Virus record (IMG/VR): IMGVR_UViG_3300023049_000574
Location: 1-64,000 of that record
Length of the DNA: 64,000 bases
Direction: 5' to 3' (one strand)
DNA from: a virus
Position 1 is the first letter of the stretch. Every line of letters begins with the position of its first letter. Positions 1 to 18,800 of this stretch are shown in pieces. The notes under the pieces were generated by a model. It saw only the letters and a list, made by a program, of their open reading frames with translations, searched no databases and was not told the DNA's origin. The translations under genes and the position numbers were made by a program.

Positions 1-2
1 TA

Positions 3-206
3 AAATTTGATAGAGTGAAAGATATAAACGGAATTGAAATAACAGAAGGGTGTGAATTACAATACAGTAGTTATACGCCAAGTGAGAATGTAGAAAAAGG
101 TAAAGTTTACACTCATAAAAAATATGGCGGATTGTGGGTAAATAGTGTGCCTGTATCGTTATTGAATTCTCACGGATTAGATTACAGAAAATTGAAAGTG
201 TTGTAG
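3..206 (+). CDS. YopX-like hypothetical protein, probably 5'-partial; putative cassette gene
   Basis: Frame is open from the window edge. KDINGIEITEG resembles the YopX KDKNGKEIYEGD motif. Followed by inverse-core-like GCATTACACACAAC. Confidence 0.5.
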   Translation, partial: KFDRVKDINGIEITEGCELQYSSYTPSENVEKGKVYTHKKYGGLWVNSVPVSLLNSHGLDYRKLKVL

Positions 207-208
207 TA

Positions 209-353
209 GCATTACACACAACGTTTTGTGTATGGTTTGAAAGCCTATAACTAAAACTAATAAATGGCACTAAATTATGTTTACTGCCGAAACATAGAAA
301 ATAAACAATAACCTTAATTGGCTTTTTAACTATACACGTTGTTATAGCCAGTT
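209..353. mobile_element. attC-like recombination site (imperfect long hairpin)
   Basis: AAC at 220-222 and GTT at 341-343. Arms GTGTATGGTTTGAAAGCC (228-245) and GGCTTTTTAACTATACAC (320-337) pair at 15/18. Inner hairpin TATGTTT/AAACATA (276-296). Confidence 0.65.
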
Positions 354-370
354 ATTTAATAAACGAAAAA

Positions 371-592
371 ATGAAAGACTTGAAATTATTTATTTGGAAA
401 GATGTATTGACTGACTATACAAGTGGAATTGCTTTTGCATTAGCCGAAAATGCAGAAGAAGCAAGAAAAATAATTTTTGCAAAGTTTGAAAAAGAAGAAC
501 AGTATTTAAGTGACACACTAAAAGCTGATTTGTCTGACGAACCTGAAATAGTAGATACTAAAGCTGGTTTCTATGTTTGGGGTGGGGGCTAA
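371..592 (+). CDS. hypothetical protein; putative gene cassette
   Basis: 73-aa ORF bracketed by the inverted repeat GTTATAGCCAGTT (341-353) / AATTGGCTATAAC (591-603), 12/13 match. Confidence 0.7.
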   Translation: MKDLKLFIWKDVLTDYTSGIAFALAENAEEARKIIFAKFEKEEQYLSDTLKADLSDEPEIVDTKAGFYVWGGG

Positions 593-619
593 TTGGCTAT
601 AACTATTATGTATATACAC
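591..619. mobile_element. attI-like primary site next to the integrase start
   Basis: GGCTATAAC followed by TATTATGTATATACAC, which reuses the TGTAT/TATACAC arm words without a long hairpin. Lies about 40 nt upstream of the integrase ATG. Confidence 0.45.
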
Positions 620-655
620 CTTTTTGTAAAACAATAATAATCAATTAATTACACT

Positions 656-1459
656 ATGTTAAATCAGAAAATTGTTAAGATCTGTGAACAAAAGTTTACA
701 TATCTTAACTATTCAAGTAGAACCAAAGATACATACATATTTTATATTAAACAATTTGTAAAGTGGTGTGGCGATAAAAGAGTAACCCATATTAGTTCGA
801 AAGATTTTCAATCATATCTTGATAATTATAAATTCACTTCTATATCACAACAAAATCAAGTAATAAATGCAATTAGATTTCTATATAAATTTGGTCTTAA
901 TAAAAAATACGATAAAGTGTCTTTTGGAAGACCAAAGAAAGAAAACAATCTACCAAAAGTTATTGATGGGGAGTCAATAAAAAAGAAACTACTCGATATT
1001 AAGAACCTAAAACATAAAACTATATTAACACTTACCTATTCAATAGGGCTTCGTGTTTCAGAGGTAGTTAACTTAAAAATAGAAAACATTGACTCCAACC
1101 GAATGTTGATCTATATCAAAAATGCTAAAGGAAGAAAAGATAGAATCGTACCACTATCTGAATATGTGTTGAAATTATTGAGGGAATATTGGAAAGAATA
1201 TAAACCTAAAATATATTTATTCAATGGTCAAAATTCTCTTCAATATTCGGTTAGTAGTTGTCAAAAAATATATAAGAAATATATTGATATTAATTCCTCT
1301 ATCCACACATTGAGACATTCATCATTTACTAATATGTTGGAGGGTGGTTGTGATCTGAGAGTAATACAGAAAATAGCGGGGCATTCATCAACTAAAACCA
1401 CTGAGTTATATACACATGTGTCAAATAAAATATTAAGTAATGTTGTCTTACCTATCTAA
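656..1459 (+). CDS. tyrosine recombinase/integrase (XerD/IntI-related, N-terminal SAM-like domain)
   Basis: Intact catalytic motifs GLRVSE, KGRKDR, HTLRHS, AGHSS, TELYTHV. Confidence 0.95.
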   Translation: MLNQKIVKICEQKFTYLNYSSRTKDTYIFYIKQFVKWCGDKRVTHISSKDFQSYLDNYKFTSISQQNQVINAIRFLYKFGLNKKYDKVSFGRPKKENNLPKVIDGESIKKKLLDIKNLKHKTILTLTYSIGLRVSEVVNLKIENIDSNRMLIYIKNAKGRKDRIVPLSEYVLKLLREYWKEYKPKIYLFNGQNSLQYSVSSCQKIYKKYIDINSSIHTLRHSSFTNMLEGGCDLRVIQKIAGHSSTKTTELYTHVSNKILSNVVLPI

Positions 1460-15814: not shown

Positions 15815-18800
15815 ATGAACGTTAGTGGAAATTTTGGTATAAAAAAACAAAAACTTATACAGAGTAGTGATATATCACTTAACTATATCGATGATGAGAG
15901 AGAAGTTATAATATCATTCTTTTCTAATGATGATAACCCTCCTGTTTATAATTTTTATAACTATGATAACCAAAAGATAGGAACATTCACTTTGGATAGT
16001 GCTAATGTTCACCCAACTAATGATTTCTTAGAAGCGGATGATAGAGATAGTGGTTATTATAACGCAGAAGAAGGATATTTATTATCACTTGTTAGAATAT
16101 ATTGGGAATTAACACCATATTCAGCATCATATACTACACAAAGTTATTTAAATGGTTTTGTTAAAATAGAATTTGATTATAATGATTTTGCTTCATCCAC
16201 ATATTCTATTGTTGGTTACTATGGAAATGGTGGAACACCATATCTTAATAGAGTGACTTATGCTAATACACATATACATTATTATGATGAACCAAATAAT
16301 TTAGTATACTTAACAAGCGGTCATCCAAATTTGAATGCAAAATTTGAAATAATTGATGCGGGTAGTCCTAGTATAACACAGTCGAGAGGAACAACCGCTA
16401 ATGGATATACGCATATTATAGACGTAGATAAAGAAAATTTAATATCAGAAATAAGAATAGCAGGTATAGACGCTACTGATAATTTGTATCATAATTATAG
16501 ATATAATTGGAACACTGATACATTAGTGATGTCTGCCACCTCAGGTAACGGACCTACCGTATACAAGGACGGTAGCAGGTATATCGAAATAGACGCAATA
16601 AGTTCTCAGAGTTCAACCCTTATAGTTAGGTTACAAGACTTTGACTGTAATGATATTACAATATTAGCACAAGAAGATAGCATATTAAGTTCAACACCGA
16701 ATAGAGTATCTAGTTCAGAAATAAGAGGGGGGAGGTTCTTTGATGATACTACAAGGTTTATGATGTCTGATTCAACAGGTACTTATATTTATACTATGGA
16801 TCAAAAAGATATAACAAAATTGATTACTTCGGATGATCTTACTTTTAAAGAATTATATGCAACAACTAATGATTTTGGAAATAACTCTGTTGTCGTGGAC
16901 GAAGACAGGGGATATATCTATATATCTAATAATGGGGCTGCAACAGTTTTCTCAGGTGCGATAATCATAGAGAGGTATGATTTAGACTTCAACTTTATTG
17001 ATCAATTTGCACCTGCTACTTATAATTGGGGCTATAACTTTATGGTATTTAGAAATTTTGCGAATGAAAAAAAATCTCAGTTTATCATACCTTTTAAAAT
17101 CGGTGCAGGTACTGTTCAAATAGGTATTTTAGATATTAATTTTGATACTTTTTCACAATCAGCTTTTGTGTCAACAGCAACAGCGAGTGTAACTAATGGT
17201 GGTAGTGTATTTACTGCTTTTTATTATGATGATAGATTAAATAAGGTATATTATTCCGAAGGTTTATTCACTGCTCAAAACCTATGGTTCAAAAAATTAG
17301 ATATGGAGACAGCAGCAGTTGATGTTAATTATAATACTACAGCAGTTGCACACGTAGGGGATATTATTTTTGATCCACTTTCTGAATCTTTATATGGTGT
17401 TATTAGTTATTCGGGAAGTAGTTATTCTATAGCTACATTCGATTATAAAACAACAACCTTTACAAATGTTACATATAATTTACCAAAAAGAGGTATCTGT
17501 TTATCATCAGTTAATGATAGAGTTATTACAATATATTATGTTAACATAACAGAAGATACTTTAAGCTTAGAGATATATACAAACAATAACTCATTCGATT
17601 TAGAACAATCGATATCTGCTCCTGTTAGTGCTTTTGTGAGTCGAGTAAAATCGGATGATATGGTACATTTTTATGCATATGGAGTAGGTGGTTCACATAA
17701 TGGCATCGGAAGGTATTTACTCACTTCTAAAAACGATAGAAATCCTGTAAATAGTGATTGTACGTATCTAAAAGAAGTTGAATATACCACTCTTTCAACA
17801 ATTGAAGGAGAAATGGTAATAGGTATAGATAATAGTGATAACTATTTATATACGATGAATACTATCGATAATGATGGGATAGCACTTACTATCAGACAAT
17901 ATGTTATGGGGGCTACCTTATCCTTAACCCAAAGTTGGTCACCTGCATCTAAAATAGGTATAAGATATAGTACATCTCCAATATGGGATCAGGATAAAAG
18001 AACATTTTGGGTAACCACAGTATCGGGAGGTAATCTTGTTTTGAATAAAATACAGATCAATGAAATCACACTAACCGCTTCAACATTCTTAGAAGAGATA
18101 TCATATAATTTCCCATCAGGTTATGGAAGTAGTATAACAAAGGTAGCATACTTAAAAGAAGAAGTCAATGATATTATTATATCCCTTTCTACTACGGATA
18201 ACGGATTGAATAATGTATACTATGTAGATAAAGATTTAGGAACGACTTCTACAACAGTTGACCTTTCGTATATCTCTGATTCTTTTCAATTAAGAGAAAA
18301 TCTATATTTAAGTGATTTTAATGTTTCATATTTCAACACATTGGGCTATGGTATAGCAGGTATACCTAGTTTAAATGTGAGGTATGATTTTAATACAGAC
18401 ACGGCAGAGACATTATATTCAAATATTGATAGGGATAATTATATATTTGAAACATATTTAAGTAAAAAATTACAAAGAGTTCTATATAAAGATATCACTG
18501 ATGATTACCTAAAATACTCGGTTTTCGATTTCAAAAATGATAATGAGTATAGTATAATAAGAAGCGGAGCTACTGTTTCATCGTCTTTAAGTCATATTAT
18601 AAAAAAGGATGGCAATATAGCTTCTTTTGATACAGGTAATGGAATATACCAAGAATTCAAGATCGATAATAAGGTATTCGAAATAGCTAGTGATCCGTGT
18701 GGTGAGGAAGAATTAGATGTGTCTACTATATCCCCTTTCATAATAGAAATGGTAACCAATGGTAGTAACCAAGTATCTATACCTATAGAAGTAGATACGG

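Follow-up and report, generated by a model that had tools for sequence, protein, structure and literature searches.

Introduction

Integrons are the textbook device for the capture of gene cassettes, and they are thought to be dependent on the integrase IntI and essentially bacterial. In an integron sensu stricto the open reading frames (ORFs) of the cassettes read away from attI and the intI gene, each attC site is located 3′ of its ORF, and expression proceeds from the promoter Pc. IntI carries an insertion domain that reads extrahelical bases and is considered necessary for attC recognition. Here we analyse a locus with a related organisation in a virus genome, comprising small cassettes, hairpin sites and a Xer-like tyrosine recombinase at positions 1–1459 of a 64,000-nt stretch of DNA. 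This stretch, denoted the window in the following, represents the first 64 kb of the linear 145,521-nt IMG/VR virus record IMGVR_UViG_3300023049_000574 (estimated completeness 58%). The large phage in question very probably carries an integron-like gene-capture array, of which window 1–1459 is the integrase-proximal end.

Two other types of mobile DNA are relevant in this context. Xer-dependent elements include CTX-type phages, which integrate as folded single strands via XerCD, and the pdif modules of Acinetobacter plasmids. The promoter-stem-loop (PeSL) cassettes of T4-type hyperplastic regions, on the other hand, shuffle by homology between repeats. Finally, Qi et al. (2023; PMC9892861) reported that virulent phages, a Polaribacter phage among them, carry attC-type clusters (CALINs) in which the sites surround small genes and DNA methyltransferases; one phage attC site recombined with attI1 when IntI1 was supplied. 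Xer and Bacteroidota-related terms have no occurrence in that paper (PMC9892861), and our full-text literature searches returned no description of a phage integron-like array run by a Xer-type recombinase.

Results and discussion

Organisation of the locus

All elements of the array in the window are located on the plus strand. Cassette A is represented by its 3′ part (1–222), consisting of a near-complete small ORF (3/15–206) and a closing core, TTACACACAAC (212–222). Cassette B, delimited as a putative mobile unit at 223–603, starts with a 118-nt attC-like hairpin site (223–340) that passes the strict architecture rule described below. It continues with the opening core R′ (GTTATAGCCAG, 341–351), a leader, a cargo ORF of 73 aa (371–592; phrog_34232, function unassigned) and the closing core R″ (TTGGCTATAAC, 593–603). 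R′ complements 593–603 at 10 of 11 positions, and the eleventh is a G·T position found family-wide. The following 52 nt (604–655) start with TATTATGTATATACACC, are conserved to the right of the junction and stop at the integrase start codon; they are assigned to an attI-like docking region. The adjoining gene (656–1459) encodes a Xer-like tyrosine recombinase of 267 aa with Phage_int_SAM_4 and Phage_integrase domains and without the IntI insertion, which we take as the presumed cassette integrase. The DNA left of position 1 is unreadable in the window's own record, as the contig end falls inside the array.

Much of this layout had been proposed in an earlier note made from the DNA letters of the window. 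The core at 341–353 and its near-perfect inverse at 591–603 are present as claimed, and form the inverted repeat I13 (GTTATAGCCAGTT and AATTGGCTATAAC; 14 nt, 93% complementary). The different inverse core said to end the previous ORF was found as GCATTACACACAAC at 209–222, right behind the stop codon of the first ORF, and the core beside the integrase start indeed lacks a hairpin. The note further described a hairpin of roughly 125 nt with 15/18 pairs and 5/3-nt spacers. Here the structure itself is the same, but the register was slightly off and the spacer lengths were imprecise. In the register of the family the hairpin runs from AAC (220–222) through a GTTT spacer (223–226), the 5′ arm (227–245), a loop (246–319), the 3′ arm (320–338) and a TT spacer (339–340) to the GTT that begins at 341. 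The arms are 19 nt each, with 18 of the 19 positions paired; three of the pairs are G·T wobbles, including the conserved family G·T at positions 8 and 13.

As 42 inverted-repeat pairs occur in 1.6 kb of this 28% GC DNA, I13 alone is not beyond chance. Its non-random aspect is the placement of the arms. One adjoins the 3′ end of the hairpin and the other the conserved junction before the integrase, and a match of at least 7/8 bases between equivalent fixed positions was observed in 1.5% of control pairs. The possibility that the inverted cores and the hairpin of the window are nothing but chance features of AT-rich DNA draws on this abundance of inverted repeats, on the hairpin energy z-score of only −1.1, and on the many GTT…AAC pairs found in shuffled sequence (48.7, vs. 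154 observed). It is nevertheless refuted: the strict rule gives one other match in 291 kb (the record, both strands), the site fits the family register including the conserved G·T positions, and both window cassettes recur elsewhere with the same cores. The window hairpin is the sole plus-strand match to the rule in the 145.5-kb record. The other match, at C1:99024–99085 on the minus strand and outside the window, is isolated and without cassette context, and is probably due to chance.

Cassette turnover at a fixed junction

Eight further contigs, obtained from other samples, carry the exact integrase sequence of the window, and contig L064 a near-identical one. These contigs share the integrase and the downstream DNA with the window at 99.3–99.9% identity (99.3% for L064), and the homology starts only at window position ~592–600, i.e. 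at the TAAC core before TATTATG. The docking region is identical in all contigs of this phage. Four different cassettes, that of the window included, adjoin the same junction, with the closing cores TTGGCTATAAC (window and L058), TTGTGCATAAC (L059), TTACCGCTAAC (L060–L063) and TTGTGCCTAAC (L064). Of the eight contigs, six measure less than 2 kb, and a start within ~200 nt upstream of the integrase was likewise observed for six; short contigs that end beside the integrase reflect the behaviour of an assembler in a heterogeneous array. L064 extends further and carries 15–19 AAC–hairpin–GTT units over 6.9 kb upstream of the integrase (~15 without weak calls), in which consecutive cores match at 9–10 of 11 positions.

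Among cultured phages, the closest carriers are the Polaribacter phages Freya and the Cellulophaga phages Ingeline, whose integrases are 36% identical to that of the window. Freya_1 to Freya_10 are otherwise ~100% identical but hold between 0 and ~12 small-ORF units before the integrase. All differences have xxxxAAC at their boundary, with the same ACCCCTATAAC sequence behind it (xxxxAAC|ACCCC), and Freya_10 equals Freya_9 plus one unit of ~305 nt. The isolates thus differ exactly at the junction equivalent to that of the window, and the insertion site adjoins the integrase gene, as is typical of attI. The original Freya paper gives the size range and takes the integrase as a sign of lysogeny, with no mention of cassettes. 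In summary, genomes that are otherwise identical are distinguished by entire units, with the break always located at the TAAC junction.

The Polaribacter phages Danklef_1–5 (MT732458–62) have only the C-terminal two thirds of a Freya-type integrase (residues 96–271, 90% identity), and their genome lengths range from 47,186 to 48,177 nt. This points to a platform that is degraded but retains some variation. Polaribacter phage P12002L, for which CALINs have been published, is not among the carriers of Freya-type integrases at E 1e-20 or better, and a link from these integrases to the P12002L CALINs would be one of analogy only.

Cassettes of the window in other contexts and their cargo

Both cassettes of the window were also observed away from it. 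Homologues of the cassette A ORF (64–68 aa, 84–90% identity) are present in L065 and L066/L067, with GTTGTGTGTAG upstream and TTACACAC(A/G)AC downstream. The partner core predicted to stand before the first ORF, beyond the left end of the window, can be read from these homologues: they are preceded by GTTGTGTGTAGTGC, and followed by CATTACACACAAC in L065 and CATTACACACGAC in L066/L067. Homology to the window ends at 223–232, whereupon different hairpins follow. Cassette B occurs as a whole unit in L071, with hairpin arms, core, leader, a 92%-identical ORF and an identical closing core, the hairpin holding a different loop. L071 is a contig of a different phage, with a block of replication genes upstream and another hairpin after cassette B. 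The same units are accordingly found in other genomic contexts. For the 73-aa ORF, 43 homologues were identified, many of them on contigs of 0.5–2 kb; the gene is also present on unrelated viral contigs without sites. Distant homologues of both window ORFs are located in ordinary operons or on unrelated viral contigs without any cores, which would fit the capture of pre-existing genes.

A scan of 83 cassette ORFs revealed two DNA methyltransferases and a few domains without assigned function, while the remainder gave no Pfam match. The inserted DNA consists of small phage-type genes with hairpins and not of host DNA from imprecise excision. Across 97 cassettes almost no content is shared, a result that shows diversity and not mobility as such.

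Conserved architecture in related loci

Relatives of the recombinase are encoded by 39 viral contigs, ~24 of them at 47–76% identity, and several of the contigs are 100–362 kb long. Sites were found in all 23 loci that combine an integrase of at least 47% identity with upstream DNA, and in none of 14 loci with recombinases of 21–28% identity. Upstream of the integrase of each relative small ORFs stand in a row on the same strand, and in every locus these ORFs point toward the integrase, which is the orientation claimed for the window. A common intergenic layout is apparent: the closing core TTGnnnnTAAC, ~5 nt (usually GGTTG), a long stem arm, a loop, the other arm, TT, and GTTAnnnnCAG. The hairpins measure 40–125 nt and differ in sequence, most hairpins in one array being unlike each other. 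In ~20 relatives, 45–55 nt before the integrase start, a variable stretch of 7–8 nt and TAAC directly precede a conserved TAT(T/A)ATATATA-type sequence without a hairpin.

The strict rule ignores the cores and demands AACG, 4–6 nt, arms of 12 nt with at least 11 positions paired, 1–3 nt, and GTT. Applied to the 23 related loci, it yielded 101 sites upstream of the integrase on the integrase strand, and no site on the opposite strand or downstream. A permissive rule (8-nt arms, 7/8 paired) was dropped as noisy, with 344 calls upstream vs. 176–220 in controls. In two complete genomes of 310 kb and 362 kb strict sites are likewise confined to the upstream side and the integrase strand, and reach back ~30 kb and ~10 kb, respectively. 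The units are arranged head to tail, all toward the recombinase gene, and the last unit ends at or within TAAC, before the conserved docking sequence ~52 nt upstream of the integrase start.

In 37 of 80 comparisons, the core after hairpin i agrees with the reverse complement of the core before hairpin i+1 at 7 or more of the 8 variable positions. The corresponding rate is 1.5% in between-locus controls (binomial p about 1e-45), and the two cores flanking one and the same hairpin match at background level only. This pattern is the integron signature, in which the end of a cassette complements its own start.

Covariation was assessed on sites called from stem positions 1–7 only. Among 33–44 unique sites, positions 8–19 are paired in 94–100%, with 2–5 pair types at most positions, and position 13 is a G·T in 32 of 33 sites. 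Pairing over positions 1–19 is ungapped in these 33–44 unique sites, so that single-base bulges or extrahelical bases are absent; a 5/2 asymmetric internal loop and the conserved G·T at position 13 are observed instead. For 47 of 55 sites the better fold is that of the integrase-sense (plus) strand (Wilcoxon p 1e-7).

A preference for the mRNA-sense strand and a tolerance of G·U-type pairs would also be expected of regulatory RNA or DNA elements, such as terminators, processing sites or PeSL-like promoter stem-loops, with turnover via homologous recombination between intergenic repeats. Several hairpin types hold the ribosome-binding site (RBS), the start codon and the first codons of the next ORF, a few types are repeated often (e.g. 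five copies in L006), and the window and L064 join the same hairpin to different ORFs, all of which can be cited in favour of a regulatory origin. However, such elements would leave unexplained the cassette-specific complementarity of cores 150–1000 nt apart (p about 1e-45), the homology break at the same 4-nt core in every comparison, the hairpin-less conserved docking site, and the strict tie of the sites to one recombinase family. Moreover, most hairpins within an array differ in sequence. Regulation combined with homologous recombination is therefore considered a highly improbable origin of the arrays; still, an RNA role on the mRNA strand and a role in recombination are not exclusive.

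One hairpin type, present at L006:3575–3692, L013:4214–4327, L023:5113–5240 and at other positions, includes an RBS, a start codon and ~25 codons. Its 3′ arm and GTT core encode a recurring N-terminal peptide (…ENLNISDVS…), and the cassette-specific core is therefore located inside the ORF. In L008 a 156-nt segment is repeated at 100% identity (2203–2358 and 2594–2749). The loop of the hairpin site at L008:2209–2328, which overlaps the first copy, contains the tRNA T-arm-like strings GGTTCGATTCC and GGGTTCGACTCCCAC, and ARAGORN finds no tRNA. No known RNA family in Rfam matches the hairpins, the only hit being tRNA-like and located in L064 (6372–6502, 35.5 bits over 131 nt). It lies inside a cassette between gttataaattg and ttatttataac and received no ARAGORN call; it may represent a tRNA-like sequence or an intron-bearing tRNA as cassette cargo.

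The recombinase

The predicted integrase scores 110.6 bits against PF00589 (cut-off 27.1) and 51.2 bits against PF13495 (cut-off 27), and combines the R..K..HxxR..H..Y catalytic domain of a tyrosine recombinase with an N-terminal SAM-like domain. Its GLRVSE, KGRKDR, HTLRHS, GHSS and LYTHV motifs align with XerA. It falls under every NCBIfam cut-off, the best model being XerA_Arch (170 bits vs. 220), with 147 bits for XerD (cut-off 330) and 133 bits for XerC (cut-off 335); by these equivalog scores it is not a XerC, XerD or XerA chromosome-dimer resolvase. The integron integrase models gave 144 bits for TIGR02249 (cut-off 265), a miss that the note had anticipated, and 105 bits for PRK15417 (cut-off 435). 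Among solved structures, Pyrococcus XerA (4a8e, E 1e-33) aligns end to end. The alignment with Vibrio IntI4 (2a3v) is obtained in two pieces only, with residues 178–209 of the recombinase (32 aa) opposite residues 180–259 of IntI4 (80 aa), and the additional domain that IntI carries upstream of HxxR is absent in this comparison. The enzyme is thus non-IntI, as the earlier note had it. The statement that YLFNGQ leads directly to HTLRHS was imprecise, since 24 residues lie between the two motifs.

The integrase is conserved at 70–82% identity, far above any neighbour gene on either side. A comparison of 15 of the related loci revealed hardly any ORFs in common on either flank. In L023/L024 (6001–6802) the integrase homologue is split in two ORFs (137 aa and 118 aa called; two tblastn pieces). 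The copy has probably suffered a frameshift or is in decay, while sites persist in the array next to it.

The cassettes could be mobile and yet be moved by another enzyme, either a host XerC/D-like protein or another phage protein. The adjacent recombinase would then be a lysogeny integrase or a dimer resolvase with its own site at the array end by chance. Host XerCD can act on folded single-stranded phage DNA, e.g. in CTX phage, the recombinase is devoid of the I2-type insertion of IntI, and cassette B in L071 has no integrase nearby. In addition, published annotation infers a temperate lifestyle for Freya and Ingeline from their integrases. Conversely, all 23 loci have the array end at a distance of 45–55 nt from the integrase start and in the same orientation, and the 14 unrelated recombinases have no sites beside them; the integrase outconserves all its neighbours, as expected if it travels with the array; and the inserts are small phage-type genes with hairpins, in contrast to imprecisely excised host DNA. 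On balance, transfer by a different enzyme appears improbable.

Proposed route of cassette exchange

The absence of a hairpin after the last cassette, the presence of the next start codon in some hairpins and the location of every homology break at TAAC place the exchange at the closing-core side, so that the mobile unit would comprise hairpin, opening core, ORF and closing core. On the integrase strand, 5′ to 3′, the predicted unit thus reads: a hairpin of 40–125 nt, the GTTAnnnnCAG core, a short leader, a small ORF and the inverse core TTGnnnnTAAC. The exchange point would be located within the TAAC of the closing core or at its 3′ edge.

In the proposed mechanism a unit would be excised as a circle through exchange between its two flanking TAAC junctions. 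The closing core would then abut the unit's own hairpin; for cassette B the circle junction is predicted as TTGGCTATAAC followed directly by GTTTTGTGTATGG. Pairing of the closing core with the opening core would provide an 11-bp stem, next to an asymmetric internal loop (~5 vs. 2 nt) and the 19-bp stem. The single strand folded in this manner, probably the ORF-sense strand, would recombine with the docking site, and the adjacent Xer-like tyrosine recombinase is the likely catalyst of the exchange. A circle is the only arrangement that gives the observed core complementarity a role. Read as its reverse complement, the locus has the exact integron layout (intI, attI, G|TT…, cassette, attC) with the ORFs inverted. 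It should be noted that the docking region at window 604–628 mimics the 5′ half of a hairpin site (AAC, 5 nt, 4 nt, TAT) and aligns weakly with the hairpin behind cassette B in L071. This mimicry may mark what the recombinase recognises.

Several observations weigh against an integron-like array. The window itself includes only one complete cassette. Its hairpin does not reach a significant folding energy alone (z −1.1 for the plus and −1.4 for the minus strand, DNA parameters), and both strands fold about equally well. In the family at large, the strand bias and the G·T pairs equally suit an RNA structure on the mRNA strand. The recombinase is without the IntI domain deemed necessary for attC recognition, and no integrase is located within 4 kb of cassette B in L071. 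Finally, the hairpin of the window and its leader recur in L064 (hairpin at 316–433; 95% identity over 141 nt), where they are linked to another core and another ORF. Such reuse of a hairpin and leader goes beyond a single exchange point, and needs either hairpin families that are reused at cassette creation or a second exchange point.

Still, the gene-capture platform put forward in the earlier note is supported: upstream units, partner core, variable content beside identical integrases, a non-IntI enzyme and cassette orientation all agree with it. Beyond this, we lean slightly towards a wider reading in which the arrays represent a second, independently evolved integron. Herein, a Xer-like recombinase without the domain that reads extrahelical bases would recombine folded single-stranded hairpin sites and thereby take up, keep and exchange small accessory genes, probably for counter-defence and host takeover, among large, possibly virulent phages of Bacteroidota-like hosts, with hairpin-leader modules reused to mint cassettes.

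Remainder of the window and the record

The neighbour genes on either side of the array in the window are absent from the 23 related loci, and no viral contig encodes a relative of the 389-aa protein whose gene lies downstream of the integrase. The contrast between a variable upstream side and a conserved downstream side accordingly draws on the contigs with the exact integrase sequence and on the Freya phages. Public phage records gave no nucleotide match to the first 6 kb of the window. A search of the 145.5-kb record revealed neither terminal repeats nor a second copy of its first 3 kb. The seven largest ORFs of the window obtained no named function in a PHROG search; the 1684-aa ORF at 15815–20869 matches large PHROG families without assigned function (phrog_17273, E 8e-122), and six other ORFs of more than 450 aa gave no PHROG match.

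Comparison with known systems

The arrays can be regarded as a natural experiment, in which integron logic is found in a virus, together with a short Xer-type enzyme, hairpins free of bulges and cassettes of opposite orientation. They can show which features are truly required for recombination of folded DNA, and how integrons could arise from Xer recombinases. They would also explain the fast exchange of small accessory genes among large phages, and explain why assemblies of phages of the window's type break beside the integrase. Moreover, they point to thousands of cassettes as a catalogue of phage accessory functions, of which DNA methyltransferases are already visible. The cultured Polaribacter phages make the system testable.

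The CALINs of virulent phages were found by IntI and attC models and described without an integrase, and differ from the arrays reported here in that no dedicated non-IntI recombinase or docking site is assigned to them (PMC9892861). Xer-dependent mobile DNA resembles the proposed system in that a Xer-family enzyme acts on folded single-stranded DNA, or in that inverted recombination sites delimit the modules. Unlike the phage arrays, however, CTX and pdif elements depend on host XerC/D and on conserved dif-like sites of 28 bp, and form no stacked array at a docking site by the enzyme gene. PeSL cassettes are similar in that stem-loops recur in the intergenic spaces of small accessory genes, within variable regions of large phages, but a dedicated recombinase, cassette-specific inverted cores and a fixed insertion point are all missing.

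The similarities to integrons are more extensive. A docking site is located beside the recombinase gene, and single-gene cassettes are stacked in one orientation. The sites follow the R″–L″…L′–R′ layout of attC, with AAC/GTT cores, and are conserved in structure and diverse in sequence; the inverse core R″ of a cassette complements its own start core and not that of its neighbour. A few hairpin types are reused across many cargo genes, which especially resembles sedentary chromosomal integrons with their homogeneous attC sites, and the cargo comprises mostly small genes without assigned function and DNA methyltransferases. Conversely, the phage recombinase is of the Xer-like type: a stretch of 80 residues in IntI4 corresponds to 32 in this enzyme, and its scores stay under the cut-offs of the IntI models. 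All cassette ORFs face the integrase and the hairpin is located 5′ of its ORF. The cores are 11 nt long (TTGnnnnTAAC/GTTAnnnnCAG), the 19-bp stem has a 5/2 asymmetric loop and a conserved G·T in place of single-base bulges, and the element resides in virus genomes of a lineage related to phages of Bacteroidota. Because the IntI domain and bulged bases are absent and the cassettes are oriented oppositely, the arrays are not integrons by membership; yet the system works like one.

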